In this document: positions 29,793 to 47,095 of the stretch, piece by piece
Layout: every line of letters starts with the position of its first letter
Position numbering within the stretch: position 1 is the stretch's first letter
From: Candidatus Levyibacteriota bacterium
Lineage (GTDB): Bacteria; Patescibacteriota; Microgenomatia; Levybacterales; UBA12049
Reading direction: 5' to 3'
NCBI GenBank assembly: GCA_038254115.1
Contig: JBBSGK010000001.1
Coordinates: forward strand, 67,778 to 131,777
DNA: 64,000 nucleotides
Made by a program: the position numbers and the translations under genes
The notes under the pieces: model-generated
Databases searched by the model: none
What the model saw: the letters and a program-made list of their open reading frames with translations, nothing else
What the model was told of the DNA's origin: nothing

Positions 29793-30436
29793 AGTGATTG
29801 TATTATAGCAGGTGTTAGTTCATCAAAAGATGTAATAATTTTATCAGCACTTTTTAGTTCTTTAGGATGATGCGTTGTGGTAATTGCAATGCATTTCATG
29901 CCAGCACTTTTTGCCGATTTTATACCGTTTGAAGAATCTTCAATCACAATACAATTTTTTGGATCAACATTTAGCATTTTTGCAGTAAGTAGAAATAATT
30001 CAGGATTTGGTTTGCCTTCTGAAACCTGATCACCTCCTGAAACAACTCTAAATTTATCACGGATTCCTAGTATCTTTAAAACTAATTCTACAAAATGAGT
30101 TGGTGATCCGGAGGCAACTCCTAGTTTGTAACCCTTTAATCTATTAATCAAATCAATTATACCTGGAATTGATATAATTTGGTCGTGTGGTATTTTTTTC
30201 ATTTTCAGCCATTTTTTTCTTACTGCCTCGCTAGGAGAGTAGTTAACTGAATGTTTTATAAATTCATTTTTAAACTGTACACCGTCTTTTGTTCCTGAGT
30301 ACAATAAAGTTATTTCTTTTTCTGAGATGTCTATACCATAACTTAAAAAGATTGCGCTTTCAATTTTAGCGTGAATCCTTTCAGTATCGGAGATGACCCC
30401 ATCCATGTCAAAAATAACTGCTCTTATTTTCGTCAT
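29789..30436 (-). CDS. HAD-superfamily hydrolase (beta-phosphoglucomutase/phosphatase-like, subfamily IA)
   Basis: AVIFDMDGVISDTE motif I, and the later motifs IEDSSNG and K. Confidence 0.75.
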   Translation of the reverse strand: MTKIRAVIFDMDGVISDTERIHAKIESAIFLSYGIDISEKEITLLYSGTKDGVQFKNEFIKHSVNYSPSEAVRKKWLKMKKIPHDQIISIPGIIDLINRLKGYKLGVASGSPTHFVELVLKILGIRDKFRVVSGGDQVSEGKPNPELFLLTAKMLNVDPKNCIVIEDSSNGIKSAKSAGMKCIAITTTHHPKELKSADKIITSFDELTPAIIQSL

Positions 30437-31404
30437 ATTTTTTTGCTTAAATTCTTCATTATTCTATCTTCAATCGGGTAATCAAAAGCTTTGAAATTTT
30501 TTCCTGTTATTTTTTCGTAGACGCTGATGTAGCGTTGAGAAGTTGCTAAGATTAATTCCTGGGCCATTTCTGGTGGTCTGCCGTTGCCAGAGTAGCCCTT
30601 TTCTGCGTACCAGAGCCTTATAAATTCTTTGTCAAAATTTTCAGGTTCCAAGTTTTTGCTAAACCTTTCATCGTAAGTATTTGCTATCCAAAATCTTGAT
30701 GAATCTGGAGTATGAATTTCATCTATTAGTATAAGTTTGTCGTCATACAAACCAAATTCGTATTTTGTATCGACAAGTATTAGTCCACTTCTTTTGCATA
30801 GCCTTTGTCCATATTCAAACAATTTAAGCGAGACTTCTTCCATTTGCTCATATAGATTTTGGGGGACCAATTTTTTTCCGATAATTTCTTTTTTGGTCAA
30901 CCGCGTATCATGCCCTCCTTTACCGGTCATATCTCCGTGATATGTAGGTGTAATAACGGGTATAGGAAGTTTTTGATTTTTTTTCAAGCCGTTCGGAAAA
31001 TTAATTCCATAAATTTCCCTCTCACCTTTTTTGTATGAATCCCAAATTGATGTGACAGTAACTCCTGTCATGTATCCGCGTACTACAATTTCAATTGGAA
31101 TCAGTTCGCAGTTTTTTGAAATCAAAACATTTGGATCGGGGACTGAGATCATATGATTTGGAACAATATTTTTTGTTTTCTCAAACCAAAACTCAGCAAG
31201 CTGATTGAGTACGGCCCCTTTGAATGGAACGTATCCAAGCATGACATCAAATGCCGACTGTCGGTCAGTTGTGATAGTTATTCTTTTATCATTTTTAATA
31301 TAAAAGTCGCGGACTTTCCCCTGATGTTTTCTGCCGAGGTTTGGGAGATTTATTGTCTTTAATACATTTGGAAGTGATGTTAGAATTGTTTGTTCATTTA
31401 CCAT
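30433..31404 (-). CDS. purC: SAICAR synthetase (long form)
   Basis: GKVRDFY...TTDRQSAFD match PurC motifs. Confidence 0.9.
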
Positions 31405-31891
31405 CTTGTTTCAATTTTTCATTTTTCGCTTTTACTGTCGATTCCATATTCTTCTTGTACTGTTCGATTTTTGATTGTAACTGCGGATTTGATGTCCCCA
31501 AAATTTCAATTGCCAAAAGTCCTGCATTTTTGGCGCCATTTACAGCTACTGTCGCAACGGGTATTCCGGCCGGCATTTGGGCAATGGATACCAAAGAGTC
31601 CAGACCATCCATAGTACTTGTTTTGATAGGTACCCCAATTGTTGGTAAAGAGGTGAATGACGCGGTCATACCGGGTAAATGTGCAGCCCCCCCGGCTCCT
31701 GCTATTATTACCTTAAGGCCTTTGCCGATAGCGGACTTAGCGTATTCAGACATATAATCCGGTGTTCTGTGGGCCGAAACAATTTCCAGCTCAAAAGAAA
31801 CGCCGAACTCCTCCAACACTTTGGCTGCTTCTTGCATAACAGGGAGATCGGAATCCGAACCCATTATTATGCCGACAAGTGGTTTATTCAT
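31394..31891 (-). CDS. purE: N5-CAIR mutase
   Basis: [14 protein letters not shown]...[10 protein letters not shown]. Confidence 0.9.
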
Positions 31892-33015
31892 ATAGTTATA
31901 TAACTTCCCGCAAGTTTTGCGTTTTTTAAAGCCTCTTCAAGTGTATCCGCAACGGCTGTAATGTGTCCCATTTTACGCTCTGGTTTCGTCTCCAGTTTAC
32001 CATAAATATGTACCTTTACGCCAGGTATTTTTTCAGCAATTTCTACGCCTTTCGGATCTGCATTTCCAGTTCTATTGCCCAAGATATTTATCATAACAGC
32101 AGCAGGAGAGGTTGTCTTGGTTGATCCAAGATTCATTCCTGTTACTGCCCTTATGTGCTGCTCGAACTGGGAAGTTTCATTTGCTTCAATTGTGTGATGT
32201 CCTGAGTTATGAACTCGTGGTGCAATTTCATTAATTAGTACTTCACCATCCTCTGTCAAAAACATTTCAATCCCGAAGACTCCTGCTCCCTTGAGGTGTT
32301 TCATAACTTCAATTCCTAATGCTTTTGCTTTATCTGCAATTTTTTTATCCATAGGTGCAGGGGAGAGAAGATAGTGCAAAATATTATTTTTATGAATTGT
32401 TTCAACCACTGGATAAGTTACAATTTCGCCATTTGTGCTACGTCCTACAATAATAGCCAGTTCTTTAATAAATGGTACAAATTTTTCTACGTACAATTTT
32501 CTTCCTCCAAGTTTGCCTAATGCACTATCAATTTGCGACTCATCTTCTATTAAGGCATTACCCCGCCCATCATATGCATCAAAGCGTGCTTTTAATAAAA
32601 TAGGGTAGCCGAATTTTTCAGCTGATTTTAAAACATCTTTTTTAGTGTTTATATCGAGAAAGTCAGAAACAGGTAGATTATTTGTCTTCAAAAACTGCTT
32701 TTGCAAAAATTTATCACGGATAATCTCAAGAGTTTCAGGAGATGGGTTTATCTTAACGCCTTTTTCTTCGAGTTCTTTTAAAATGTCGGAGTTTGCCAGT
32801 TCAATCTCAAATGTCAGATAATCAGAAATATCTCCAAGCTCCCGGATCGCTTTCTCGTCTTTAAAATCTGCTATTATCTGGCTATCTGCTATTTGACCTG
32901 CAGGACTCTTGGGGGTTGGGTCGATGATATTAACTGTGAAGCCTAATTTTTTTGCAGGAGCGGTCAGCATTCTACCAAGTTGCCCGCCGCCAACAATTCC
33001 AATTCTTTTTTTCAT
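31888..33015 (-). CDS. purK: N5-carboxyaminoimidazole ribonucleotide synthetase (ATP-grasp)
   Basis: [14 protein letters not shown] with an ATP-grasp body. It sits directly upstream of purE. Confidence 0.85.
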
Positions 33016-34409
33016 CTACTGCAAAGATTTTTTATATTTTCAGCTAATTTTTTTGCTCTCTCGGGGGCGTCGCCAGTGTGGGATTTTACATCTAGCAATT
33101 CTTCAATTTCTTTTTTATTGAGATATTTGTTAATTGTTTGATCAGACAATAATAAATCTTTCATTGGGTTTGGATTGCCATTTGATACTTCTTCCCAAGC
33201 TTTCATTGAAATTTCTCGAAGCACCTCGTGCGTCTCCTGGCGGTCTGCGCCTTTTTTAACTGATTCAATTATTATCAGCTCAGTTGCCGAGAAAGGAGCA
33301 TATTGATTAAGGTTTTGCATGATTTTGTTTTCATTAATAACCATTCCGCCAATTAATTTTTTTGCAGTTTCCAAAATATCATCTGTTGCTAGAAAAGCTT
33401 CGGGCATAATAACACGTTTGTTGGCAGAATCGTCAAGAGTTCTTTCAAGAAGTGAAACAGAGGCATTCTCTAGCGCAACCGGAGGGAGCGATCTAACATA
33501 TCTTGCAAGTGAACAAACTTTTTCAGATGTAAAAGGATTTCTTTTAAAAGGCATTGCCGATGATCCGACTTGTTTTTTACCAAACGGCTCAGACCATTCA
33601 CCAAAACCGGGGGATTGCATAATACGCAAATCAAATGCAAACTTTGAGATGCTGGATGCAATTGATGCCAGCGAAGATAGAATAAAGTAATCAAATTTTC
33701 TAGGATTAACCTGGCTTGAGATTAGAACAGCATCAAGGTCCAAGTCTTTCAAGAATTTTTCTTCAAGTTGGGCCGGTGTGGTAGTAGTTCCTTTCAATAA
33801 TGCTGAGTAACTTGCCGCTGTGCCGACTGCGCCTTTTAAACCTTTTCCTTTGATGGTTTGTTTAATAAAACGCAATTGTCCAAGATCCAGCAAAAGGTCT
33901 TGCGCATAAAAAGCAAATCTATATCCGAGAGTTGTCGGTTCTGCCGGCTGCAAATGAGTGTATCCCATGCATGCATGATCTGCATATTTTGAGATTTTTT
34001 CCTCAAGAAGTTTTAATACACTTATTAATTTTTCTTCAATTATATTTAGCGCTTCTTTGTTACGGAGTGTTTCTGCATTGTCAACAATGTCCTGACTTGT
34101 TGCACCCAGATGAATTTTTCCACCGCCAATTTTTGCTTTTTCTGAAAATTCTTTCAGAGCTGAAACTACATCATGATTTGTGTCTTTTTCAATTTCAAGT
34201 ATACGCCCGATGTCAAAATCGTCTACATTTTTTTCCAGATCCTTCAGTTCCTCAGTACTTACCAATCCCGTAGAGTTTTGTGCTTTTGCAAGTGCCACCC
34301 AGAGTTTTCTCCAGGTCCTGTATTTATTTTCCTCACTAAAAATACCTCTCATTTTTTCAGATCCGTATCTCCAGCTAAAAGGCGATTGATATGTTTTAAA
34401 ATTTATCAT
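33012..34409 (-). CDS. purB: Adenylosuccinate lyase
   Basis: Fumarate-lyase signature GATSQDIVDNA. Length 465 aa. Confidence 0.9.
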   Translation of the reverse strand: MINFKTYQSPFSWRYGSEKMRGIFSEENKYRTWRKLWVALAKAQNSTGLVSTEELKDLEKNVDDFDIGRILEIEKDTNHDVVSALKEFSEKAKIGGGKIHLGATSQDIVDNAETLRNKEALNIIEEKLISVLKLLEEKISKYADHACMGYTHLQPAEPTTLGYRFAFYAQDLLLDLGQLRFIKQTIKGKGLKGAVGTAASYSALLKGTTTTPAQLEEKFLKDLDLDAVLISSQVNPRKFDYFILSSLASIASSISKFAFDLRIMQSPGFGEWSEPFGKKQVGSSAMPFKRNPFTSEKVCSLARYVRSLPPVALENASVSLLERTLDDSANKRVIMPEAFLATDDILETAKKLIGGMVINENKIMQNLNQYAPFSATELIIIESVKKGADRQETHEVLREISMKAWEEVSNGNPNPMKDLLLSDQTINKYLNKKEIEELLDVKSHTGDAPERAKKLAENIKNLCSR

Positions 34410-35497
34410 GAAATTATTGAATCTAGCTTATTTGATTCTGCTGCTTCTTTTATTTCCATAGCTACCCGTTTACCGACATTGATTGGCTCTCCAAATAAAT
34501 ATCCGCTGTAGGGAGTTGCTGTAATTCCCGGAGATCCGGGGAATCTTGGCGAGACATCAATTACAACAATATCCTTTTTTGGAGGACCCGGTATTATAAA
34601 AGATTGAAGTGCAAAGGGTCCAATTATACCGGGATTCTTTAGTTTATTGCATGCTGTCACAAATCTTTCTCCTATTTCAAATACCTGCTCAAGCATAGAT
34701 TCAAGAACAGTAACTGCAGTATGGCTTGCTTCCTCATATGAGATGGTTACTTTTTTTAATAATTCCTCCTGGTAATTTAGAGGAAGTTTCGTGATGCCGT
34801 CAAAATTTGTCTGTCGTCTGGTATCTGTTCCTAGTAATTCCAAGCGGTTATGGATAGGAGAATAGAAAAAATTAAAATTTACTTGGACTCCAACAATAAA
34901 TTCTTCAATTACTGCTTTCTTTAGCAAGTCTTCTGTGATTAGACCAAGATATAATTTTTGCTCTGTTTGCTTAATATAGTCTTCATAACTATCAACTATA
35001 AAAAATGCCCTCTCAAACTCTCGCTCCTTTTCAAGAACTTTCACAAGACACACCCTGTCAATTTTTTTGGGATCCTTGAATTGTTTCGGATAGCGTATCC
35101 CTGCTGCGTCTAAGAGATCGTATTGATTTGGTTTGGCCCCTCTTTCTTCAATTCTTAACAATTTTTTGTTGCCAAACATAGGAACTGAGAATTTGTTTTC
35201 AATTGCATCATAGTCATTTATATAAACTTCAAATGACCTGTTGGGAATAAATATTGCGTTTTTACTCTTTAACTTTTCCTGAATAGGTGGTGTTAGAATA
35301 TCAGAAAATTTATCAACCAATAAAATTTCATCAACGCATCCAAGATTGCCTTTGGTTTTATAATAATTTGCATACGTTTTTTCCCTTCCTTTTTGGCATA
35401 CAATTATATTCTTAAATCCGATGTCCTTGGCGCCGCGGGCAACTTCAAGTGCTGAATGGCTGCCTATTGTTGCGATAGTTATGTTTTTATTATTCAT
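34406..35497 (-). CDS. PurP-like ATP-grasp protein; divergent paralog of archaeal FAICAR synthetase
   Basis: IATIGSHSALEVARGAK, SVPMFGNKKLL and NFNFFYSPI are collinear with M. jannaschii PurP TLGSHTSLHILKGAK, LVPMFGNRRIL and IHYFYSPL. Confidence 0.6.
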   Translation of the reverse strand: MNNKNITIATIGSHSALEVARGAKDIGFKNIIVCQKGREKTYANYYKTKGNLGCVDEILLVDKFSDILTPPIQEKLKSKNAIFIPNRSFEVYINDYDAIENKFSVPMFGNKKLLRIEERGAKPNQYDLLDAAGIRYPKQFKDPKKIDRVCLVKVLEKEREFERAFFIVDSYEDYIKQTEQKLYLGLITEDLLKKAVIEEFIVGVQVNFNFFYSPIHNRLELLGTDTRRQTNFDGITKLPLNYQEELLKKVTISYEEASHTAVTVLESMLEQVFEIGERFVTACNKLKNPGIIGPFALQSFIIPGPPKKDIVVIDVSPRFPGSPGITATPYSGYLFGEPINVGKRVAMEIKEAAESNKLDSIIS

Positions 35498-36144
35498 TGG
35501 TGATGATGCTTGATAGGTTCTAATCCGTCGACTTCTTCAATGAAAAAATCAACGCCATCAGTTTTTATCTTGATATATGCGGTATTTGCAATTGAATAAT
35601 CGGCAAGCTCCTTGTATGTTTTATATCCCAAGTGAACTAAGAACGTTCTCATAATTGAGGTGTGACTGATTGTCAAAACGGTCTTGTTAGGGTAGGAAAT
35701 AGCAATTTCCCGGAGCGCAGTTATAAATCGTGACATAACTTCCTCATCAGTTTCGCGTCCAACGGCAAGAGTTTTACTTTTCCATTCATCATAAGGAATG
35801 TTATACATTGTATCTATAATTTCCTTTATTTCTTTTTTTGCTTCAGCTGTAGGGCGTCCTTCCAATACTCCATGAAACCTTTCTTTCAAGTGTTCTTTGG
35901 TAAGAACGGCGAGCTTATGTTCCTCAGCAATAATTTTGGCGGTTTGCTGTGCTCTTACCAAAGGTGATGCAAAAATGACATCAAATTTAATTTTTTTAAG
36001 GTTTTTTGCCGCATCTTTCGCCTGCTCTTGCCCTTTTTCAGTTAATTCTTTATCTAGTCCGTAGGTATCAACAGGATGGTTTCCATGGGATTGTCCATGG
36101 CGTACTAGATAAATTGTGCAATAGTTTTTATCTTTCATAGTCAA
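35494..36144 (-). CDS. Histidine phosphatase (phosphoglycerate-mutase superfamily) protein
   Basis: IYLVRHGQSHGN with the RHG catalytic motif. Confidence 0.8.
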   Translation of the reverse strand: MTMKDKNYCTIYLVRHGQSHGNHPVDTYGLDKELTEKGQEQAKDAAKNLKKIKFDVIFASPLVRAQQTAKIIAEEHKLAVLTKEHLKERFHGVLEGRPTAEAKKEIKEIIDTMYNIPYDEWKSKTLAVGRETDEEVMSRFITALREIAISYPNKTVLTISHTSIMRTFLVHLGYKTYKELADYSIANTAYIKIKTDGVDFFIEEVDGLEPIKHHHQ

Positions 36145-37685
36145 TGTTTAAATGCTCTTATTCCTGTCATTATCATAGCAACTCCTGATTCATTACATGC
36201 ATCAATTGTTTCTTGGTCTCTTATCGATCCGCCCGGCTGAATAATAGCTATTATGCCAGCTTTTATCAGTATATCAGGTCCATCCCGGAAGGGAAAAAAT
36301 CCATCAGTTGCAGCGACTGCACCGGTTAGGGGTTTAACGGCTTTACTTACGCATAATTCACAGCAGCGTTTCCGGTCTTGCTGCCCGACACCCGATGCCA
36401 AAAGTACACCATTTTTTACAGCTACAACACAATTTGATTTACTGACTTGGGATATACTCCATGCAAATAATAAGTCATCCAGTTGTTCTTTAGTTGGTTT
36501 TATTTTTGTAACACATTTCAGATCTTTTTTGGTCAATTCATATGTATCTGTGTCTTGCATAATATAACCGCCCCTGATTTTTTTCTGCTCTTTATAATTT
36601 TTGAGATATGGCTTTGATAACTGGGTATTCTCCAGCAATTGCAATTTAGGTTTTTTGGATAAAGCTTCTAGTGCTTTTTTTGAAAACCCAGGCGCCGCAA
36701 TCACCTCGAAGAATTTTTTATCCAAAAGCATGAGAGTGGCCAAATCTTGCGTAACGGCTCTATTGAAAATTATAACTCCGCCGAATGCTGCCAGAGGATC
36801 GCCATCAAACCATGCTTTTTGAAATGCATCTTCTACGGTTTCAGAAACAGCAGCTCCGCAGGGATTGGTGTGTTTGAGAATTACACAAGCCGGGGATTTT
36901 TGTCCTATTAAAGAAATTGCCTGAAGACCTGCATCCAGATCAAGATAATTATTGTATGATGTTTCTTTCCCCTGCAAAACTTTGTAATTTCCCAGTCCCA
37001 ATCCATCTTTGTTTTTAGCATCTTTGAAAAATTCTGCGCTTTGATGCGGGTTTTCTCCATAGCGTAATTTTTTTCCATTTTGCAGCGTAATAAATTTATC
37101 AGTTCCGTCTATTTCTTTCTGAAAATAATTTGCTATTATTTCATTATACTGCGCAACGTAAGAAAAGGCTTTGGCGGCCAGTGCTTTACGAAAATCTTCA
37201 TTAGTCACGTTAGTTTTTTCAATTTCTTTTGCGACAGATTTATAATCTCTAGGATCGGTAACTACAGTTACACTTTTATAATTTTTGGCAGCGGATCTCA
37301 CCATTGTTGGACCGCCTATATCGATCATTTCAATACCCGGTTGATCAGCGAAAGGATAAAAATTGCAAATAACAAAATCTATAATAGGAGTTTGAAGTTC
37401 TGCTGCTTGTTTTGCATGAGTTTTATTGCCGCGGTCAAACAAAAGGCCTGATGCAATTTGAAAGCTTATTGTTTTTACACGTCCATCAAAACTCTCAGGA
37501 GATTTGGTTATTTCTTCGATCGGAATTATTTTTATACCGTTTTTAATTAAATACTTTGCCGTCCCGCCTGTTGAAATAATATTGATTCCATTTTTGAGGA
37601 GTATTTTTGCCAGATCTAAGATACCTGTTTTGTCATAAACACTAATTAGAGCGTATTTTTGATTTACTGTTTGGTTCTTCTTCAT
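36141..37685 (-). CDS. purH: Bifunctional AICAR transformylase / IMP cyclohydrolase
   Basis: ALISVYDKTGI MGS-like domain, and AICARFT domain motifs. Confidence 0.9.
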   Translation of the reverse strand: MKKNQTVNQKYALISVYDKTGILDLAKILLKNGINIISTGGTAKYLIKNGIKIIPIEEITKSPESFDGRVKTISFQIASGLLFDRGNKTHAKQAAELQTPIIDFVICNFYPFADQPGIEMIDIGGPTMVRSAAKNYKSVTVVTDPRDYKSVAKEIEKTNVTNEDFRKALAAKAFSYVAQYNEIIANYFQKEIDGTDKFITLQNGKKLRYGENPHQSAEFFKDAKNKDGLGLGNYKVLQGKETSYNNYLDLDAGLQAISLIGQKSPACVILKHTNPCGAAVSETVEDAFQKAWFDGDPLAAFGGVIIFNRAVTQDLATLMLLDKKFFEVIAAPGFSKKALEALSKKPKLQLLENTQLSKPYLKNYKEQKKIRGGYIMQDTDTYELTKKDLKCVTKIKPTKEQLDDLLFAWSISQVSKSNCVVAVKNGVLLASGVGQQDRKRCCELCVSKAVKPLTGAVAATDGFFPFRDGPDILIKAGIIAIIQPGGSIRDQETIDACNESGVAMIMTGIRAFKH

Positions 37686-37687
37686 AA

Positions 37688-38704
37688 CTAATCCAGAATA
37701 ATTGAAAGTTTGTCTTTCTTAATAGCATTTTTTATTTCCCTGGCAATTCTCCGGCCTGTACTCATCGGTTCATTGTAATAAAGCCAAGAGTAAGCAGAGC
37801 CGTTGATAAATAAGTTTGTTCCGGCGACGATTCTTGCGGAAATTTCCAAAACAAAAAACCTGCCGTCAGGAGTGATAATTGTCTCAAGACAGAAAGGACC
37901 AAAAATTCCCCTTTTATCAATCACTTTTTTTGATTGCGCTATCGTTTTTTTGGCCATATTATATGCCTCAGAAAGCATACTTTCACGTAGTACCAAATCG
38001 CTGTTCCCGACAACAACGTAGCTTGGCTCAATATCTAGCTCTTCTTGTCCGAGGAGTGGAATTCTTCCTATGCCATCAGCATTGGTTTCATAGCGCCTAT
38101 CCATACTCATGATTTCAAGTTTATTGGATAGAGGGGAGTAAAAATAGTGAATATATAACGGGACACCTATGACATATTCTTGTATTACAAATTGTTTATT
38201 CTCAAAAACGCTTATTTTATTTTCAAAATCACTTCTGTTTTTTGCGTAGAAATATCCTTTGCCGCCTGATGCACCATATGACTTAACAATGATAGGGTAT
38301 TTTACCGGCTCGTGCTCAAAATCAAATTGGTGGGGCACATTGATTCCTGCATTTACAAGCCACTCGCGCTGCTTTTGTCTGTCTTCTTCCCAGTCGAGGA
38401 CATTTTTATTGCCATAATACAAAACGTTCATACTCTTATTCTTCTCAGCGCCGAGATAGGCAACAAATGAGCCGTGAGGAATTAGAATTACATTCTTATC
38501 TATTAATTCTTTCTCAATCGTCGGGAATTCAGAAAAAGAGGGGAGAGTTATAAATTCATCAATAAAGGGAAATGTTTTATAAAACTCTTCTTTTCCTGGA
38601 GTTGTTATTATTAGAGTTCTGAATCCTTCATCTTTTGCACCTTTTAATATCTGAAGCGCCGAGTGGCTTCCAAGTGTCGAGATTATGTATTTTTTATTAT
38701 TCAT
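37688..38704 (-). CDS. purP: 5-formaminoimidazole-4-carboxamide ribonucleotide synthetase, archaeal-type (formate-dependent)
   Basis: ISTLGSHSALQILKGAKDEGF, IPHGSFVAYLG, YIHYFYSPL and FVLEISARIVAGTN are collinear with M. jannaschii PurP. Confidence 0.8.
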   Translation of the reverse strand: MNNKKYIISTLGSHSALQILKGAKDEGFRTLIITTPGKEEFYKTFPFIDEFITLPSFSEFPTIEKELIDKNVILIPHGSFVAYLGAEKNKSMNVLYYGNKNVLDWEEDRQKQREWLVNAGINVPHQFDFEHEPVKYPIIVKSYGASGGKGYFYAKNRSDFENKISVFENKQFVIQEYVIGVPLYIHYFYSPLSNKLEIMSMDRRYETNADGIGRIPLLGQEELDIEPSYVVVGNSDLVLRESMLSEAYNMAKKTIAQSKKVIDKRGIFGPFCLETIITPDGRFFVLEISARIVAGTNLFINGSAYSWLYYNEPMSTGRRIAREIKNAIKKDKLSIILD

Positions 38705-38705
38705 G

Positions 38706-39551
38706 TTATTTAAAGTATTTTACAGCATTTTTGAATATTTGTAACCCTGGTCCATCAACCGGAAGTTTTTGTCCCTCTCTATTATACTTTTCTTTCAGCA
38801 ATTGCCAATTGGGAATTTGATTAAAAAACATTCCCCGTTCAGGATGGGGCATAAGACCCAAGATTTTACCTGTGCTGTCAGTAATGCCTGCAATATCATC
38901 AATTGAGCCATTAGGATTGGCAGGAAGATCCAGATAAATACTCATTTCTCCCAGTGTATACTGTAGTGCAATTTGTCTGTTTTTATGTAATTCCTTGAGA
39001 TCTTTTTTGTCTACGAAAAACTTTCCTTCACCATGTGCGATTGGTAGGGACAGAGTATCAATTCCCAAGAGCCAGGGAGTATCGGATACGACCCTCAGGT
39101 CTACCCAGCGGGTAATAAACCGAGCCGATTGGTTGTAAACCTGTGCAACCTGTCTTTCACCGTAGTTTTGAGAAAGGGCCGGAATAAGGCCAAGATTTGT
39201 AACAATCTGGCAGCCATTACATATTCCAATGATAAGCTTATCTTTCTCAAGAAACTTTTGTATTTGCACCCAAAGATGATTACGTACTTTATTTGCGTAT
39301 GCATTTCCGGCACCTGTGTCATCTCCATATGCAAAACCGCCCGGGAAGGACAATATTTGGTATTTATCCAGTTTTTCCCGCCCATCAACGATATCATTGA
39401 TATGAACAATGTCTGAGCTAGCCCCTGCTAATTCAAAGCCATATGCGGTTTCTTCTTCTGAATTTAGTCCGTATCCTGAAAAAACTAAAACTTTTGGTTT
39501 GTTCATAATATTAATAATCCGCAAATGTTTTTCTATACGCGTTTGTTGCAT
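38706..39551 (-). CDS. purQ: FGAM synthase glutaminase subunit (class I glutamine amidotransferase)
   Basis: VFSGYGLN..., GGFAYGDD, IGICNGCQI with a catalytic Cys, and the MPHPER His. It overlaps the purL 3' end by 41 nt. Confidence 0.8.
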   Translation of the reverse strand: MQQTRIEKHLRIINIMNKPKVLVFSGYGLNSEEETAYGFELAGASSDIVHINDIVDGREKLDKYQILSFPGGFAYGDDTGAGNAYANKVRNHLWVQIQKFLEKDKLIIGICNGCQIVTNLGLIPALSQNYGERQVAQVYNQSARFITRWVDLRVVSDTPWLLGIDTLSLPIAHGEGKFFVDKKDLKELHKNRQIALQYTLGEMSIYLDLPANPNGSIDDIAGITDSTGKILGLMPHPERGMFFNQIPNWQLLKEKYNREGQKLPVDGPGLQIFKNAVKYFK

Positions 39552-42537
39552 CTTTCAAATTCAAGTTAATTATCTCCTCTCCTTTTAGTCCATTAATTTT
39601 TATGGTTGGTTCTTTGACTATTTTTCCAATTTGGGATATCGCGTTTCCTAGCATAGCTTTTTCAAATATTTTTTTATTGCTTGGCGCAATTGTCACTAAA
39701 ATTCTTCCCTGGCTTTCCGAGTATAGTGCAAAATCATTTCTGTTTACGCTGCCCGGTAAATTTTTCAAATAAATATCTGCCCCAAGCTGTCCACCTATTA
39801 TTTTTTTGGCAAGTGCAACAGCGAGTCCTCCGCGCCCAATGCTAATGCTTGATGCGATAAGTTTTTGCTGAATTGCATTATAGTAAGAAGCATATAATTT
39901 TTTATTTTTCTCGGCATCTACATCCGGCACGATACTTCCTGTTTGATTAATCATCGAAAAATATTCAGATCCACCTAATTCTTCGTGTGTTTCTCCCAAA
40001 ATGTAAATTATGTCTCCAGCAAATTTTGCATCAAGTGAAACGGTTTTTGTTATGTCATCAATCACACCAATTGATGAAATGAGAAGAGTGGGGGGGACTG
40101 AGATTTTGATAGGCAAGCCATTATTATCAAATCCTTTAAAGTCATTGAACATGCTATCTTTTCCTGAAATAAAAGGAGTGCCATATGATACTGCATAATC
40201 GTAGCAAGCTTTTGCGGTTTGTTTTAATTGCCATAAGCGTTCCGGTTCAAAGCTTTCGCACCAGCAAAAATTGTCCAAAAGCGCGATTATGTCAGGCTTG
40301 GCTCCTGCGGCAATAACATTTCTTACTGCGCTATCGATACAAACTGCACCCATTTTGTAAGGATCAATTTCAGAATAACTAGGATATAAAGCTTGGGACA
40401 TTACTACTCCCTTTTGGCTTTTTAAAATAGGTTTGATTACCGATGCATCAGCATTCACTCTGCCCCGCCCCTGAAGCGGCCCCAGGACTGCGTTACTTTG
40501 AACGATATTATCGTATTGTTGTGATATAAATTTAAAACTTGTTAGATTCATACGCGACAACATTGAAAGCAATATTTTTTTTTGATCTTTTGGTTCTGCA
40601 ATGCTTAATTCTTGCTTCTTAATGCTTAATTCTTTGGTTTCAAGTTGGCGCTTAGGAAGACCGTCGTGTAAAAACTCTAAATCAACATCCATTATTTTTT
40701 TACCGTTATAGTCGACAACACACCGGCCGCTTCTTGTAAATTCACCAATTATAGTTGCCTCAACACCCCGCCTCTTCATAAGATCTGAAAATTTCTTCCA
40801 GTTATTTTTGGGAATGGCAAGTGTCATACGCTCCTGGGATTCCGAGATCCAAATTTCCCAGGGATCAAGGCCTGCATACTTAAGTGGTACTTTTTCAAGA
40901 TCTACAATGCAGCCGCCTGATTCTTTTGCCATTTCCGAAACTGAGCAGGAAAGTCCGCCGGCTCCATCGTCTGTGATGCTGTTGTACAGCAACTGATCAC
41001 GCGCTTCTTTTATGATAGCATCACTCATTTTTTTCTGAGTAATCGGATCACCAATTTGTACTGCAGCAGCAGGGCTTCCACTGTCTAGCCCAACTGATGA
41101 AAAAGTAGCTCCGTGAATTCCATCCTTACCGACTCGCCCCCCGGTCATTACTATCAAGTCGCCAGGTAGGGATTTTTTAATGTGTGATAATTTGCCTTTA
41201 ATTTTTTTCGGGATTAGTCCGATTGTACCGGCAAACACCAAAGGTTTACCCCTATAACGCTCATCAAAGTATATAAATCCCTGAGGTGTCGGAATTCCTG
41301 ATTGATTCCCTCCTGCATTTACACCGTCTATTACTCCGTCCATTATCCTCCTGCTGGAGAGTATTGGATTTTTGAGGTCTTTATCACGATATAAAATTAT
41401 TTCATCCGATGGATCTCCTGCCCGCAACGCTCTCGCTTGCGAGGCGGGCGGGGCGAGACAAAACCCGTAAAAATTGGCAATAGGTTTGGCACCTAGACCA
41501 AATCCGATCGTATCGCGGTTAACGCCTACAATCCCGGTTATGGATCCCCCATATGGGTCAAGAGCTGATGGGCTATTATGTGTTTCTACTTTGTGAGTTA
41601 TTAAATAATTATCATCAAAAACAATTGCTCCTGAGTTATCTGTAAAAACAGAAACACAGAAATCCTTTTTGCCTTTCTTTTTTCTAATCTCTTCCGTTGC
41701 CCGCTTAATATAAGTTTTGTAAAGCCCGCCTTTTATTTTATCAATTGGTCCTCCAAAAATTGTATGCTTGCAATGTTCAGACCATGTCTGGGCAATTGAC
41801 TCCAGCTCAATATCAGTGGGATTACGTCCTAGCTTTTTAAAATATTTTTGAATTGCTTTCATAAATAGAAGATCAAGAGCAAGAGGACCACGCCGGGTCT
41901 CATCAGAATTTAAAATTCCAGATTTTCCAATTTTTATCAACTCCTCGTCTGATATATTGAGATTAACATCTGTTACTTGAGGTTTTTTAATAAGTTTTAC
42001 TTTGGAAGTAACGATATCCATCCCTCCGTCTTTAATAAACTGCCCGCAGCTTTTTATAAGTGTTCTCTGAATTAGAGGATTATGAAGACTTAGTGCGATT
42101 TGTTCTGCATCCGCTTTTGAAATTTTTCCATTAATGAATGTGACTTGGGAAGTGTAAACATCTTCATCGTTTGAAAATTTTATTTTCAAAGTGTCTTCAA
42201 TTATTTCTTTCGCAGTGTGCGCTATGTTATCGGTCACTCCCGGAAGAAATCCAATTTCTATTGCAAAACTAAACTGGTTTTCTAGTTTTGCCTTTTTGTT
42301 TTTTGTTCGAAATATAAAATTCTGAGTGACAGGATTGGATAATGCTTGTGCAATTGATTCGAGATGTTTTTCTGAAAATGATTTGTCAACAGTATATACA
42401 TCGATTATCCAAAGATCTGAAATATTTTTAAAGCCAAAACCATTTAGCTTTTTTTGCCGAGTTTGCGCTCTTGCATCAAAATCTTTTACTATAATTCCTA
42501 TCCTTGTTGTCATATCTTTCCAATGTCCAATCTGCAT
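39511..42537 (-). CDS. purL: FGAM synthase, large (E. coli-type) N-domain plus synthetase domains but without a glutaminase domain
   Basis: Two PurM-like repeats with glycine-rich motifs. Length 1008 aa. Confidence 0.9.
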   Translation of the reverse strand: MQIGHWKDMTTRIGIIVKDFDARAQTRQKKLNGFGFKNISDLWIIDVYTVDKSFSEKHLESIAQALSNPVTQNFIFRTKNKKAKLENQFSFAIEIGFLPGVTDNIAHTAKEIIEDTLKIKFSNDEDVYTSQVTFINGKISKADAEQIALSLHNPLIQRTLIKSCGQFIKDGGMDIVTSKVKLIKKPQVTDVNLNISDEELIKIGKSGILNSDETRRGPLALDLLFMKAIQKYFKKLGRNPTDIELESIAQTWSEHCKHTIFGGPIDKIKGGLYKTYIKRATEEIRKKKGKKDFCVSVFTDNSGAIVFDDNYLITHKVETHNSPSALDPYGGSITGIVGVNRDTIGFGLGAKPIANFYGFCLAPPASQARALRAGDPSDEIILYRDKDLKNPILSSRRIMDGVIDGVNAGGNQSGIPTPQGFIYFDERYRGKPLVFAGTIGLIPKKIKGKLSHIKKSLPGDLIVMTGGRVGKDGIHGATFSSVGLDSGSPAAAVQIGDPITQKKMSDAIIKEARDQLLYNSITDDGAGGLSCSVSEMAKESGGCIVDLEKVPLKYAGLDPWEIWISESQERMTLAIPKNNWKKFSDLMKRRGVEATIIGEFTRSGRCVVDYNGKKIMDVDLEFLHDGLPKRQLETKELSIKKQELSIAEPKDQKKILLSMLSRMNLTSFKFISQQYDNIVQSNAVLGPLQGRGRVNADASVIKPILKSQKGVVMSQALYPSYSEIDPYKMGAVCIDSAVRNVIAAGAKPDIIALLDNFCWCESFEPERLWQLKQTAKACYDYAVSYGTPFISGKDSMFNDFKGFDNNGLPIKISVPPTLLISSIGVIDDITKTVSLDAKFAGDIIYILGETHEELGGSEYFSMINQTGSIVPDVDAEKNKKLYASYYNAIQQKLIASSISIGRGGLAVALAKKIIGGQLGADIYLKNLPGSVNRNDFALYSESQGRILVTIAPSNKKIFEKAMLGNAISQIGKIVKEPTIKINGLKGEEIINLNLKDATNAYRKTFADY

Positions 42538-43784
42538 TGCATGCCTTCAAAATGAATTCCATTTTTTCCAATTGCAGAATAAGCTTTTTTCAGTGCCTCA
42601 TTAAGTGTTTTACCTATTGCAGTTATACCAAGAACGCGACCCCCGTTTGTCAAAATTTTTCCATTTGCTTTTTTTGTTGCGAAGTGAAAAACAAAAATAT
42701 CTTCGTTTTTAATATTATTTAATCCATGAATTTCAATATTTTTTTTGTAACTTCCCGGGTATCCTGGGGATGCAAGGATGATGCAGCATGCAGATTGTTT
42801 AGCCCACTTTATATTTAACTCAGATAAATTTCCTTCTACGCAGGCAACTAGAATATCATAGAAATCTGTTTGCAGAAGTCTCATGTACGATTCCATTTCA
42901 GGATCTCCAAATCTTGAATTAAATTCAATTACTTTGGGTCCATCTTTTGTCATCATGAGTCCGGGATAAAGACAACCTACAAATGGTATGCCTTTTTTCT
43001 TAAGCCCGTTTAATGCCGGCTCAACAATTTTTTTCTTTATAGTTTCCAGATCATTTTTTGTAATATCCGGAACCGGTGCGATGGTTCCCATACCGCCTGT
43101 ATTTGGTCCGAGGTTTCCATCATGGATTGGTTTGTGATCACGTGATGCGGGCCATATTGAAAAAATATTTCCATCTGAAAAAACATGAATTGATATCTCT
43201 TTGCCTTGTAGAAATTCCTCTATCACCACTTCGTTCCCGGCTTCTCCAAATATCTTTTTTACCATAAGTTCATTAATTGTCCCCAAGGCTTGGTCTAAAC
43301 TCCGGGCAATTATTACCCCTTTTCCTAGCGCTAAACCCGATGCTTTGATAACTACGGGAAATGTGTGGTTTTTGAGATATGTCTTTGCATCAGCGGCATT
43401 TTTAAAAGTTGAAAATTTTGCAGTTGGAATTTTTTCATCTTTCATTAAATCTTTGGCAAATGATTTTGACCATTCTATCTTTGCCGCTTCTTTTGTGGGG
43501 CCAAAAATCTTTAATCGTTTTTTCTGAAACGCATTTACAATCCCGGCGGCAAGTATATCATCAGGTCCTGCAATGGTTAGAGCAATTTTATTTGTTATCG
43601 CAAATTTAATTAGTCTATCAAAATCGAGCGGATTAATACTTGTATTCTCACCAACAGTTTCCGTTCCTGCAGTGCCAGGGGAAAAGTAAATTTTCCCAAC
43701 TTTTGGAGATTGCTTCAATTTCCATCCCAACGCATGCTCCCGCCCGCCTGAACCGATAATTAAAACATTATTTTTTTTCACCAA
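42510..43784 (-). CDS. purD: Phosphoribosylamine--glycine ligase
   Basis: VLIIGSGGREHALGWKL. Confidence 0.9.
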   Translation of the reverse strand: MVKKNNVLIIGSGGREHALGWKLKQSPKVGKIYFSPGTAGTETVGENTSINPLDFDRLIKFAITNKIALTIAGPDDILAAGIVNAFQKKRLKIFGPTKEAAKIEWSKSFAKDLMKDEKIPTAKFSTFKNAADAKTYLKNHTFPVVIKASGLALGKGVIIARSLDQALGTINELMVKKIFGEAGNEVVIEEFLQGKEISIHVFSDGNIFSIWPASRDHKPIHDGNLGPNTGGMGTIAPVPDITKNDLETIKKKIVEPALNGLKKKGIPFVGCLYPGLMMTKDGPKVIEFNSRFGDPEMESYMRLLQTDFYDILVACVEGNLSELNIKWAKQSACCIILASPGYPGSYKKNIEIHGLNNIKNEDIFVFHFATKKANGKILTNGGRVLGITAIGKTLNEALKKAYSAIGKNGIHFEGMQCRLDIGKI

Positions 43785-45904
43785 ATAAATTCTCCTTTGC
43801 TGATATCAATACCATTTTTTATTACATGAAGAACTCGCTTTATTGCAGTTGGTAGAATTACATGTTCAGTTTCATGTATTTTTTTCTCCCATGATTCAAA
43901 TGTATCTTCAGGTCTTCTTCTTATCTCAGATTTCATAATAATTGGTCCCATGTCAAAGTGATTGCCTGCAACTATCTGATGAATTGTTATTCCTGAAACC
44001 GGCCACTCTTTTTCGAACGGAGGTTTAATTACTTGCATGCCCCATCCTCTAAGGACCGGAATTCTACCACGTGATGTTTGAACTGTTTCATCAAATTCTT
44101 TTGTAATTAGTGCGGGATGTAAGTTGATTGCACCAATTTGCATTTGTTGTATTTTTTCCCAAAATGGTTCTCCCAATATCATTGACCAGCCTGCTAATAC
44201 AATTAGATCAGGACGGTTTTTTTCTACATAATCAATTAATTTTATCTCATAATTTTCTCTTCCCAATTTATCAGATAATTTTCCTTCGTAAGGAATTACA
44301 ACCGACGGGATTTTATGTTTTTTTGCCCGGACCAGCCCATAAGCATCTTTTTTATTGGATACAACGCTAATTTTTGCATCAATATTCCCATTTTCTACCT
44401 GGTCAATTATTGCTTGCAAGTTTGTGCCGCCACCGGAAATGAACACTGCAATTTTTGGCTTTCCTGTTATTTTTTTATTTAATTTTGGAAGAGGTTTTTG
44501 TTTATCCCTGATTGGATGCGGACCGCCAAACGGGGCATAGTAAAAGTCTTCTTTCACGCCACCCATTGCTTCGGCAGTTTGTTCGATCGGTAGGTATATA
44601 ACTTTGTCCGCTTTTATGAGTTCTGCGATATTTTTTTCTATTCTATCAAACGGTTCTTTTTCAAATAGCGCAGCAGGCAATTCTTTCTTCGATCTCATGT
44701 CAATTCCCATATCGCACTGATCTACAACAGGAGGTGAGGCAAATGCCATATATATTTCTGTTGCTCCTGCTTTTTTGAGCTCCCTAGCCAAAATTTTACT
44801 TGTTGTAAGTCTTACCGCAGAGTCATCTACAACAACAACTTTTTTGCCTATCACCTCATCGGGAACTACGTTATGTTTGTGTCCGACAGCTGCCTCTCTT
44901 TTTTTCTGACCTGGTTGTATAAAGGTGCGCCCAATATAATGACTTGTCATGATTGCATCAACAAGTGGAAGTCCCAATGCCTTTGAAACTCCTTTTGCTG
45001 CAGGGTATCCAGAATCAAATACAGGAACTACAATATCAGGTTTAATATTTTTTTGTTTGATCCTCCGAGCCAAAAATGTTCCACTTCTTTCACGTCCAGC
45101 CTTAACCCGCCTTCCGTTAATAAAACTGTCTGGTCTTGTAAAATAAATATATTCAAGTATACAGAATTGGTGACGTTTGGGAACTCCGAAAAAGTAGGAA
45201 TTCAGTGATCCATCTTTACTTATTTTTATTATCTCACCGGGCGCAACATCGCGGACAAAATCAGCGCCCGTTGTATCTATGGATACGGATTCTGATGCGA
45301 TAATCCAGCCCTTGGGTAGTTTGCCAAGGCAAAGCGGGCGGATGCCAAAAGGGTCACGTACAGCGAAAATTGATCCATCTTCTGTCAGAATAGTCAAATT
45401 ATATGCCCCTTCAAAAAAGGGAAGGGTGTGCACAAGAGTTTCCTCCCAGCTATTAAAAGATTTGCGTTCTTTTATAAGAAGTTTGGCCATAAGCGTTGTA
45501 TCGCTGTTCGCTTTTTCGTGTCCTCCCAAATGCTTTTTAAGATTCGATACATCAGGAATGTTTCCGTTGTGGCCTATGCTTATTTGATATTTGTCATTTG
45601 TTATATCCAATGGTTGGGCATTTGAAAATGAGGATTCGCCGGAAGTTCCATAGCGGTTTTGTCCGATCACGGATTGGCTTTTACCCAAATTTTGAATAAT
45701 AGTATCAGTAAGCACATGAGGAACAAGCCCCATGCCTTTATATGTAACAATTTTATTTTTTGGAGTATAAACAGAGAGGCCTGCACTTTCAAGTCCGCGG
45801 TGCTGGAGAGCTGCTAGGGCTAGGCGTGCAAGGTATGGCGCATGACCGTTTGCATCCCATACTGCAATTACACCGCATTTCTCTCTTAAATCAATATTAC
45901 TCAT
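43778..45904 (-). CDS. Fusion protein: amidophosphoribosyltransferase (PurF, N-terminal) plus phosphoribosylglycinamide formyltransferase (PurN, C-terminal)
   Basis: N-terminus M-SNIDLREK-CGVIAV carries the Ntn Cys with a propeptide, followed by PRTase motifs. The C-terminus KIAVFISGGGTNLQAIID...NLHPAL is collinear with E. coli PurN. Confidence 0.85.
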   Translation of the reverse strand: MSNIDLREKCGVIAVWDANGHAPYLARLALAALQHRGLESAGLSVYTPKNKIVTYKGMGLVPHVLTDTIIQNLGKSQSVIGQNRYGTSGESSFSNAQPLDITNDKYQISIGHNGNIPDVSNLKKHLGGHEKANSDTTLMAKLLIKERKSFNSWEETLVHTLPFFEGAYNLTILTEDGSIFAVRDPFGIRPLCLGKLPKGWIIASESVSIDTTGADFVRDVAPGEIIKISKDGSLNSYFFGVPKRHQFCILEYIYFTRPDSFINGRRVKAGRERSGTFLARRIKQKNIKPDIVVPVFDSGYPAAKGVSKALGLPLVDAIMTSHYIGRTFIQPGQKKREAAVGHKHNVVPDEVIGKKVVVVDDSAVRLTTSKILARELKKAGATEIYMAFASPPVVDQCDMGIDMRSKKELPAALFEKEPFDRIEKNIAELIKADKVIYLPIEQTAEAMGGVKEDFYYAPFGGPHPIRDKQKPLPKLNKKITGKPKIAVFISGGGTNLQAIIDQVENGNIDAKISVVSNKKDAYGLVRAKKHKIPSVVIPYEGKLSDKLGRENYEIKLIDYVEKNRPDLIVLAGWSMILGEPFWEKIQQMQIGAINLHPALITKEFDETVQTSRGRIPVLRGWGMQVIKPPFEKEWPVSGITIHQIVAGNHFDMGPIIMKSEIRRRPEDTFESWEKKIHETEHVILPTAIKRVLHVIKNGIDISKGEFIW

Positions 45905-45916
45905 AATTAAAAGAAC

Positions 45917-45939
45917 AAAAAAACCCGCTCGTTAGCGGG
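45917..45939 (-). terminator. Intrinsic-terminator-like hairpin followed by a T7 run in the purF 5' leader, 12 nt upstream of the start codon
   Basis: On the minus strand: CCCGCU-aacg-AGCGGG followed by TTTTTTT. No convergent gene exists for it to terminate. Confidence 0.5.
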
Positions 45940-46093
45940 GTTATGTTTTTATGCTTCGGCACTGAGCATTCTAATTTAATTATAATATATCTCTTTTGTT
46001 GTTTCAATAGGATTTTTGCTACCTCCATATGGTATTATAGCACAATTACTCATAAATTACATTAAATTGGGCCCGATATGTTAAAATCAGTCC

Positions 46094-47095
46094 ATGGATA
46101 ACATAAGGGAAAGGGCTGAAAAATTGATTGAAAAAGTAGACGCTGAAAGTAAGCGGGAAAAGATAAGAGAGCTCGAGGGGGAGAGTTCAAAGCCCAATTT
46201 TTGGCAAGATCATCAAAAGGCAGCCCTTGTAATGAAAGAGCTGTCGGATCTCCAGAAAGAGCTTGAGGACATAGAGCTCTTGCAAATGTATGTGAGTGAG
46301 GGGGAGGATGAAGAGGCAGCTAAGCTCCTAAAGAAATTAGAACTGTTGTTATTTTTTGGCGGAGTAAATGATCAGGCGAATGCTATTATGGGTATTCACT
46401 CAGGGCAAGGAGGAGTTGAGGCAATGGACTGGGCAGAGATGCTTTTTAGAATGTACACCAGATTTTTTGAGAAAAAGGGATGGAAATATGAGATTTTGGA
46501 TCAGACGCAGGGTGAGGAAGCAGGGATAAAAAGTATAACAATTGCAGTGAGCGGTAAATATGCATTTGGATACCTCAAACATGAAGGAGGCGCGCACCGA
46601 TTGGTACGGCAATCGCCTTTTAACGCAGATAAGCTCCGTCAAACCTCTTTTGCACTTGTTGAAATTTTGCCTGAAGTTGCAAAAGAAGTGCTGGATCTTA
46701 AAGATGATGACATAGAATTTGAAGCATTCCGATCAGGAGGACATGGCGGACAAAATGTAAATAAGGTTTCAACGGCAGTCCGCATCAAACACAAGCCAAC
46801 GGGAATCGCAGTTACCGCCTCAGTTGAGCGCTCCCAAATCCAAAACCGGGAATTTGCAATGAAGCTTCTCCGTGCAAAGTTGTGGGCGATTCAGGAAGAG
46901 GAAAGAAAGAAAAAAGAAGCGGAATTAAAGGGCGGTTACAAAACGCCCGGCTGGGGGAATCAGATCCGGTCATATGTCCTGCACCCTTATAAAATGGTAA
47001 AGGATTTGCGGACTGGTGTTGAGACAGGTAATACGGATGCTGTTTTGGATGGAGATTTGGATATGTTTATTGAAGAAGAGCTTCGGGTTTTATAA
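46094..47095 (+). CDS. prfB: Peptide chain release factor 2 (single ORF, no programmed frameshift)
   Basis: SPF motif (VRQSPFNAD) and GGQ motif ([11 protein letters not shown]). Confidence 0.9.

Follow-up and report, generated by a model that had tools for sequence, protein, structure and literature searches.

A conserved terminator before the purine operon of Levybacteria: a very probable attenuator, tentatively controlled by translation of a leaderless short ORF

Introduction

How can a purine operon be expressed when a strong transcription terminator stands 12 nt in front of its first start codon? The question is raised by purF of Candidatus Levyibacteriota bacterium, the first gene of a purine operon in a 64-kb stretch of DNA (here called the window; assembly GCA_038254115.1, contig JBBSGK010000001.1, positions 67,778-131,777 of the forward strand). 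The terminator lies in the 189 nt (45905-46093) that form the entire spacer between purF and the divergent gene prfB. A first-pass annotation of the same DNA had proposed a candidate attenuator or riboswitch at this place, in the form of a metabolite-controlled terminator/antiterminator. To our knowledge, gene regulation in the Candidate Phyla Radiation (CPR, or Patescibacteria) is almost unknown because the group is uncultured, and de novo purine synthesis is found in few of its members. Here, we compare the purF leader with its counterparts in related genomes, and find that the terminator is very probably an attenuator that travels with purF. We tentatively propose that it is controlled by a ribosome on a short open reading frame (sORF) within the leader.

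Results and discussion

A predicted intrinsic terminator directly upstream of purF

On the minus strand, the purF-proximal end of the spacer reads AACCCCGCUAACGAGCGGGUUUUUUUGUUCUUUUAAUUAUG. This includes the hairpin CCCGCU-AACG-AGCGGG and seven U residues (45939..45917, minus strand), made up of the stem arm CCCGCU (45939..45934), the loop AACG (45933..45930), the arm AGCGGG (45929..45924) and the U-run (45923..45917). A further 12 nt (45916..45905) lead to the purF ATG (45904..45902), which has no Shine-Dalgarno sequence. To count as an intrinsic terminator, a hairpin had to have a G+C-rich stem (5 bp or more), a loop of 3-9 nt and, directly after it on the transcribed strand, 5-6 or more U residues in a row; the purF hairpin has a 6-bp stem with five G-C pairs, a 4-nt loop and U7, and a consensus scan of the sequence also predicts a terminator here. 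The pattern CCCGC-N3-10-GCGGG occurs once in the window, compared with 0.08 occurrences expected by chance. A perfect-stem terminator scan of the whole window returned three sites, and the purF hairpin is the only intergenic one, the other two lying within open reading frames (ORFs). The terminator that the first-pass annotation had placed 12 nt before purF is thus confirmed, as is its remark that there is no convergent gene, the upstream prfB being divergent.

To see how far this arrangement extends, we used the purF product, a PurF-PurN fusion of 708 aa (43778..45904, minus strand; Pfam GATase_6/7, Pribosyltran and Formyl_trans_N). With a cutoff of E<=1e-100, the fusion has at least 161 homologues. 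Identity ranges from 55 to 100% among the best 120 listed, of which the informatively labelled ones are Levybacteria or Roizmanbacteria-type CPR metagenome-assembled genomes (MAGs). From a genome scan (L002-L008), a metagenome scan (L009-L011) and exact-protein look-ups (L089-L106), we gathered 22 distinct upstream regions from Levybacteria/Microgenomates MAGs, with PurF-PurN proteins 54-77% identical. The matches listed from the metagenome scan, which was made with a PurF-PurN alignment, were mostly ordinary PurF at 35-41% identity; L009-L011 were used as orthologues and the rest as negative controls. Some Levybacteria-type loci and proteins (contigs L001, L004 and L007; proteins P0003, P0023 and P0053) were deposited as Lysobacterales/Xanthomonadales, Limnocylindrales, Gammaproteobacteria or Acidoferrales MAGs, names that are probably the result of mis-binning or mislabelling.

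All 22 leaders have the same order of parts: TTGACA-17-TATAAW and/or TGnTATAAT, the leader, (A)CCCGC-loop-GCGGG(U), a run of 5-9 U residues (6-9 in 21 of them), and purF. The leaders are 45-125 nt long, the first AUG stands 43-91 nt away from the terminator stem, and in most of them purF starts 4-16 nt 3' of the U-run. The loop sequence is free, while the stem is nearly invariant, with a single G-C swap (L010) and a single U-G pair (L106). The first-pass annotation had made its case depend on the conservation of the leader in related genomes, and the terminator is retained in 22/22. The upstream neighbour varies between loci (prfB, adenosine deaminase, UDG, peptidoglycan-binding genes or a dehydrogenase), and therefore the leader element travels with purF. 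A generic terminator belonging to the upstream gene can be ruled out, as a promoter sits between that gene and the hairpin and the neighbours vary.

The element is also specific to this type of purF. In 129 kb of related loci, searched on both strands, 19 of 23 canonical-terminator matches are the purF hairpin, and two more are the same hairpin called on the opposite strand. By contrast, when the 200 nt upstream of purF were searched in 70 ordinary loci (35-41% identity), no terminator of this kind was found in any of them. Canonical intrinsic terminators outside the purF leader number only two in the 64-kb window (both intra-ORF) and two in the 129 kb of related loci; Levybacteria-type bacteria must end most transcripts by other means.

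The opposite-strand calls bear on an alternative that the first-pass annotation had itself raised, that the hairpin ends an unannotated plus-strand transcript leaving the 5' end of purF. A plus-strand scan of the window does score the hairpin (CCCGCTCGTTAGCGGG then GTTATGTTTT), and an A-run precedes the hairpin on the minus strand. However, in the window the plus-strand tail is interrupted, relatives such as L007, L100 and L102 have no T-rich tail there, just 2 of the 19 related hairpins score on the opposite strand, and the minus-strand U5-9 is present in all 22 leaders. With the U-run conserved on the purF strand only, we give an antisense terminator next to no credence; the purF hairpin is, by prediction, a sense-strand terminator inside the purF leader.

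The gap of 4-16 nt between the U-run and the ATG can be read directly from the sequence, and it leaves no room for a promoter. Transcription of purF therefore requires read-through of the terminator, and a terminator passed only by read-through is therefore an attenuator. From its position and conservation, we regard the purF terminator as very probably an attenuator. This part of the original proposal thus holds; its riboswitch part fared differently, as described below.

Predicted promoters upstream of the terminator

Two predicted promoters precede the hairpin. P1 (46034..46042, minus strand) has the extended -10 element TGcTATAAT, with the first ATG exactly 5 nt later, and its TGnTATAAT form is invariant in the eight leaders of the window's own type (8/8; the window group). 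The first-pass annotation had pointed to UAUAAUACCAUAUGG (46039..46025, minus strand). It is present, and it consists of the P1 extended -10 element and the leaderless ATG that follows, rather than part of an aptamer. P2 (45979..46007, minus strand; promoter scan) reads TTGAAA-17-TATAAT, matching 11 of 12 consensus positions, and is located 45 nt downstream of P1. In the form TTGACN-17-TATAAW it is retained in 8/8 window-group leaders, and it is the sole promoter of the other leader types. The predicted transcripts start at about 46028 (P1) and 45972 (P2), giving leaders of about 124 or 68 nt to the purF ATG. The "190-nt leader" described previously is therefore correct as the length of the spacer (189 nt), but not of the leader.

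The transcript from P1 would begin at or beside an AUG, and such starts appear to be common in this genome. Shine-Dalgarno-like motifs precede 4 of 50 gene starts, no different from the background of 7.4%. A hexamer resembling a -10 element, in many cases TGnTATAAT, is found at a distance of 5-9 nt from 15 of the 50 starts, compared with a background of 6.7%. These counts suggest a genome essentially without Shine-Dalgarno usage and with widespread leaderless mRNAs at first cistrons. The missing Shine-Dalgarno sequence before purF, noted previously, is thus real, but it is a genome-wide trait rather than a peculiarity of purF. Starts of the type TGnTATAAT-N5-9-ATG are found across the window, for example at 4798, 8177, 12978, 22119, 24361, 28683, 46094 and 51766. 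A literature search on leaderless translation in CPR bacteria returned nothing relevant.

A predicted leaderless short ORF under selection in the window group

The first ATG after P1 opens an ORF of 43 codons and a TAA (45897..46028, minus strand), MEVAKILLKQQKRYIIIKLECSVPKHKNITPLTSGFFCSFNYE. Its start lies in a predicted leaderless context, TGcTATAAT-N5-ATG without a Shine-Dalgarno sequence. The sORF spans P2, a second hairpin described below, and the terminator, and its stop codon (45899..45897) lies 2 nt past the purF ATG (AUGAGUAA). Its frame is open for 129 nt, compared with 6 and 48 nt in the other two frames, and the long leaders in general have a much longer open stretch in the sORF frame than in the others. 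Across the eight window-group leaders, this frame has three stops, all of them terminal (1-4 nt from the stem), compared with 32 and 23 in the other frames. Among 84 substitution states in this group there is no premature stop in the sORF (P of no premature stop about 0.003), and the single indel upstream of P2 is 3 nt long. As far as substitution patterns can, these counts show that selection keeps the sORF open in the window group.

We then tallied the sORF ends over all 22 leaders, using the first ATG, except that two leaders (L104 and L106) were read directly from the sequence and the ATG at N5 was taken in L005. While the window sORF has 43 codons, those of its relatives have 9-43. The sORF ends beyond the terminator in five leaders, in the terminator loop in two, 1-7 nt 5' of the stem in six, 13-16 nt 5' of the stem in seven, and far upstream in two. 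In 20 of 22 leaders the stop thus falls between 16 nt before the stem and 44 nt past the stem's first base. This is the geometry of the leader ORF of E. coli pyrBI, with the stop near, within or past the hairpin, for an sORF whose translation we infer. The seven leaders with a stop at 13-16 nt belong to six mutually unrelated sequence types. The two exceptions (L099 and L011) have an ORF from a second ATG that reaches to 14-15 nt from the stem. The -10 element and the ATG are exactly 5 nt apart in 14 of 20 leaders.

Two further features concern one leader type. In L009 and L104, GGUCA at the sORF start codon can pair with a UGACC that contains the sORF stop, which would enclose the entire 12-codon ORF in a long-range helix. 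The length of 12 codons is retained in L009, L011 and L104 despite nucleotide divergence of about 50%.

A model of translation-gated attenuation

The reading that we favour, at somewhat less than even confidence, is translation-gated, ribosome-mediated attenuation of the whole purine operon, of the type known from pyrBI and with no ligand-binding RNA. Transcription would start from a strong promoter, which in the window is P1, with a transcript beginning at or beside the AUG and P2 lying further downstream. The 5'-terminal AUG would serve as the leaderless start codon of an sORF extending up to, into or through the very strong terminator before purF. With no ribosome close behind RNA polymerase, the hairpin would form, transcription would stop, and purF and the 13 genes downstream would stay silent. 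With a pioneer ribosome close behind the polymerase as the hairpin emerges, the hairpin would be occluded or sterically prevented, and the polymerase would read through. In the window, the ribosome would then terminate atop the purF AUG, coupling purF translation to that of the sORF, and a ribosome stopping on the purF start codon would suit re-initiation without Shine-Dalgarno sequences. Access to the 5' AUG, through a weak hairpin or palindrome, may tune the system or add a layer of control. The sequences show the conserved architecture, the rarity of such terminators elsewhere, start contexts of the leaderless type and an sORF kept open, with no aptamer or antiterminator; translation of the sORF, and the relief of termination by it, we infer.

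The distances involved can be compared with those of E. coli. There, shifting the stop codon's position from 28 bp to 5 bp upstream of the tR2 terminator lowered termination from about 90% to less than 10% (PMC4824070). At distances of 17-18 bp the sequence made a difference: one series of constructs gave an efficiency of 0.12 at 17 bp, while the other value was 0.8. The terminator worked at full strength only when the stop was more than about 30 bp away, and termination returned when translation was abolished (PMC4824070). By analogy, the sORF stops in 20 of 22 leaders would fall in the repressing or borderline range of the E. coli distances.

Several observations weigh against this model. 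The start sites, sORF translation and termination are all predictions. In the two exceptional leaders (L099 and L011), the sORF fails when read from the first ATG, and the seven stops at 13-16 nt before the stem are at the edge of the range in which a hairpin is blocked by a ribosome that is terminating. The ORF test has little power in short leader types, where the shuffle P of reaching within 17 nt of the stem is 0.3-0.55 and the remaining frames often extend equally far; this limit of 17 nt was itself picked after inspection of the data. Four leaders (L010, L009, L104 and L106) have the ATG 9-17 nt past the -10 element and are hence not strictly leaderless. The sORF peptides are not conserved between leader types, nor are they enriched in a regulatory amino acid. 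Finally, the model does not explain why P2 lies within the sORF or why the palindrome described below has a constant N9 spacing. An unconserved peptide fits a leader peptide in which translation, and not sequence, matters. The frequent K-H pair in the peptides is simply the translation of the AAGCAU hairpin arm.

An alternative is a constitutive element without any sensing. The terminator could be a fixed, leaky brake on a strong promoter, or the end of an independent short transcript (a small RNA or the mRNA of the sORF). This would accommodate the lack of an identified sensor, and a leader that nothing recognises specifically could be as poorly conserved as this one is. The short RNA ending at the terminator, about 55-110 nt in length, would be plentiful. 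However, a weaker promoter would do the same free of cost, and the element is limited to purF in genomes otherwise nearly devoid of such terminators, where it stays with purF although the upstream neighbours differ. A constitutive role also leaves the open sORF, which is under selection, to be explained. We therefore consider a purely constitutive element quite improbable.

For translation-gated attenuation, the next question is what is sensed. Our preferred guess is that low levels of purine nucleoside triphosphates (NTPs) would slow the polymerase on an A-rich leader, so that the ribosome catches up and read-through follows. This is the most speculative part of the model. The race for NTPs is proposed by analogy with pyrBI and mgtM, and the choice of ATP or GTP is a guess. 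The leaders contain 44% A, compared with 36% in the operon sense strand, and those of the window group about 50%. A-richness is not universal; L103 and L099 have about 33% A, and L007 is also not A-rich. In its strongest form, the idea would make the leader a sensor of purine nucleotides that has neither an aptamer nor an alternative RNA fold, a pure kinetic race between the polymerase and the pioneer 70S ribosome on the leaderless sORF AUG that sets de novo purine expression in CPR bacteria. We regard this form as possible but doubtful.

The AUG-containing hairpin and a possible regulator protein

Between P2 and the terminator, AUGCU (45969..45965) and AGCAU (45955..45951) enclose nine nucleotides (45951..45969, minus strand). 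This is the second hairpin seen in the first-pass annotation, and it is indeed there. It can be read as a weak 5'-proximal RNA hairpin (about -3.6 kcal/mol) that includes an AUG, or as a DNA palindrome near +1 of P2. Across the leaders, the 5' hairpins have energies of -2.7 to -4.7 kcal/mol and free loop sequences. In the window group, and also in L006, L007 and L008, the arms of the palindrome are always 9 nt apart, while the sequence of this spacer is free.

A constant spacer suggests a different explanation, in which a protein controls the leader. A purine-responsive regulator could bind AATGCT-N9-AGCATT as a DNA operator at +1, repressing the promoter, or as a 5' RNA hairpin, hiding the AUG or modifying the polymerase; the terminator would merely enforce a low basal level or be overcome by a factor. 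The palindrome does lie at a predicted start site, its 9-nt free-sequence spacer is typical of operators for dimeric proteins, and its sequence is conserved beyond the needs of a 5-bp stem. In other leader types, however, the spacer varies from 3 to 8 nt, and the arms differ in a compensatory way: the AUG-anchored stems swap their partners (UGCC/GGCA, AUGGA/UCCAU, AUGG/CCAU and AUGA/UCAU), with one G-U pair (L094). This fits RNA pairing rather than a single DNA-binding protein, and the changed partners together with the G-U pair support an RNA hairpin as the nature of the AUG-containing element. Three leaders (L004, L096 and L090) have also lost the element but have kept their promoters, sORF and terminator. 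Searches for a regulon with the palindrome or AATGCTC found only the copies in purF leaders and chance intragenic matches, with no second palindrome in a promoter context in about 203 kb (the window and related loci). No regulator gene is linked to the operon, and a regulator protein would leave the universal terminator unexplained. On balance, we think control by such a protein unlikely.

Under translation-gated attenuation, the AUG-containing hairpin could make the 5' AUG less accessible to ribosomes, or it could have a stabilising effect on the 5' end. On the P2 transcript, the AUG of this hairpin opens a mini-ORF in the window, AUG CUC AGU GCC GAA GCA UAA (45949..45969, minus strand; read from the sequence). 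The mini-ORF is four codons long in 7/8 window-group leaders, and the stop of this four-codon form lies about 20 nt 5' of the terminator. P2 itself may provide a second start, or it may act as a roadblock or as a site of sigma-dependent pausing.

Riboswitches and other sensors

A new and very small riboswitch would be a further possibility, in which the 5' hairpin and linker bind guanine, PRPP, ZTP, ppGpp or an NTP and act directly on the terminator. The location before a purine operon is typical of riboswitches, and the terminator would be the expression platform. Very small aptamers embedded in terminators have been reported, as for the HMP-PP riboswitch. However, no Rfam family scores above the gathering threshold in the 64-kb window or in 20 related loci. 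This includes the covariance models for the purine riboswitch (RF00167), ZTP (RF01750), ykkC/PRPP/ppGpp and T-box, none of which passes this threshold in either set. At E<=10, the region 45800..46200 gives only terminator-like junk matches. An Rfam scan of 20 ordinary purF loci, meant as a positive control, was also empty and hence validates nothing. The earlier impression that no known purine, ZTP or PRPP aptamer is evident here thus agrees with the scan.

The structure of the leaders points the same way. In an alignment of 17 leaders (MAFFT and RNAalifold), the terminator is the sole shared structure and there is no conserved aptamer core; conservation is confined to the 5' end and the terminator, while the linker cannot be aligned across sub-clades. 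When the leaders were folded without the 3' arm of the terminator, its 5' arm paired with upstream sequence no more than in shuffled leaders, so that no antiterminator, or alternative pairing for the terminator arm, was found. The leader thus appears to have neither of the general marks of a riboswitch, a conserved ligand core and mutually exclusive terminator and antiterminator pairings. The linker and loops are unconserved between leader types, and the 5' hairpin is weak, has a free loop, and is lost in three leaders. We consider a mini-riboswitch very unlikely, and with no Rfam match and no competing helix, the riboswitch/antiterminator part of the first-pass proposal finds no support.

Two other sensors were considered and set aside. 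An amino-acid leader-peptide attenuator of the trp/his type was rejected, as there is no run of end-product codons and no competing antiterminator helix. In some leaders an AUGGAR start after the -10 element hinted at pyrG-like reiterative transcription, with G-slippage pairing with the CCCGC arm; this was dropped because some leaders lack the AUGGAR start and because we saw no conserved tract complementary to the arm.

The purine operon and its neighbours

The 17-kb purine operon described in the first-pass annotation is borne out as 14 tightly packed genes, running from 45904 to 28683 on the minus strand (~17 kb) with ORFs that abut or overlap. Downstream of purF, these are purD, purL, purQ, purP, purH, a His_Phos gene, a second purP, purB, purK, purE, purC, a HAD gene and purM (28683..43784, minus strand; assigned by Pfam). 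The PurF-PurN fusion combines a glutamine amidotransferase, a phosphoribosyltransferase and a formyltransferase. Some metagenome loci that are less closely related (38-39% identity; L014, L018, L023, L065, L075 and L088) also have the fusion. Two PurP-type genes (DUF1246/DUF1297; 37688..38704 and 34406..35497, minus strand) share the operon with a PurH gene (36141..37685, minus strand). We take this PurP type to be the archaeal family of formate-dependent FAICAR synthetases. The histidine-phosphatase and HAD hydrolase genes are interspersed among the pur genes. PurL (39511..42537, minus strand) has 1008 aa, with about 200 residues N-terminal to the FGAR-AT linker domain, which may be a fused PurS or another N-terminal extension.

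On the other side of the spacer, the divergent neighbour prfB (46094..47095, plus strand) encodes an RF2-like protein with PCRF and RF-1 domains. It is one uninterrupted ORF of 333 aa, and the programmed +1 frameshift site usual in prfB is absent. Its promoter, TGtTAAAAT-N6-ATG (46079..46096, plus strand; identified by sequence and -10 spacing), lies at the far edge of the spacer and also looks leaderless.

Comparison with known systems and significance

The closest parallel is E. coli pyrBI/pyrE, where a strong promoter, a leader ORF reaching to or through a terminator before the first gene, and a ribosome that blocks the hairpin without any antiterminator control a nucleotide operon (PMC3641672, PMC4824070). 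In pyrBI, UTP-sensitive pausing lets the ribosome catch up with the polymerase (PMC3641672). However, pyrBI responds to pyrimidines and has a leader ORF with a Shine-Dalgarno sequence and a U-rich pause tract, while the purF leader precedes purine genes, has a leaderless sORF, and is only moderately and not universally A-rich. It also differs by its tandem promoters and AUG-containing hairpin, and it is known here from sequence alone. The idea of a purine signal has a parallel in mgtM of the Salmonella mgtCBR operon, where a purine NTP (ATP) is proposed to be read, by way of conserved adenines, through the speed of the polymerase on an adenine-rich leader relative to the ribosome on a short ORF, the two being coupled or uncoupled (PMC3641672). 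Unlike the purF leader, in which we found no alternative helix and whose target is the purine pathway, mgtM has alternative stem-loops and belongs to a virulence/Mg2+ locus.

Leaderless sORFs also act as attenuators in mycobacteria, where biosynthetic operons begin with a polycysteine sORF as their first cistron, and expression of the genes behind the sORF depends on its translation (bioRxiv 10.1101/834739). These sense cysteine through runs of Cys codons, whereas the purF leader has no codon run, belongs to CPR bacteria, and has a canonical intrinsic terminator as its output. The trp, his, leu and phe attenuators similarly combine a leader peptide with a terminator before a biosynthetic operon, but use end-product codons and a 2:3 antiterminator, neither of which we found in the purF leader. 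The purine, ZTP and PRPP riboswitches of Firmicutes and others share the position before pur genes and the terminator output; unlike them, the purF leader has no Rfam match, conserved core or switching helix. In Bacillus subtilis pyrG, CTP-sensitive reiterative transcription makes an antiterminator, and the short leader, gene-proximal terminator and NTP sensing without an aptamer are all reminiscent of purF (PMC7039003). However, pyrG depends on a homopolymeric start complementary to the 5' arm of the terminator, while purF leaders have AUGGAR, and not in all cases, with no conserved G-run or complementary tract. The purF element is thus best filed as a leaderless, purine-controlling CPR variant of ribosome-mediated, pyrBI-like attenuation.

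The purF element is small, about 130 nt. It gives a 14-gene purine operon a control element that is found across the clade and has sharp limits, and it is unlike known purine riboswitches or PurR systems. The genome around it has no Shine-Dalgarno usage, leaderless first cistrons and scarce intrinsic terminators, a style in which translation-gated termination would be a natural form of regulation. If the model is true, ribosome-mediated nucleotide sensing would extend from pyrimidines in enteric bacteria to purines in a deep bacterial lineage. As a pure kinetic race, the purF leader would be a purine counterpart of pyrBI built on leaderless translation, and no regulatory mechanism would have been worked out earlier for any member of the Candidate Phyla Radiation.

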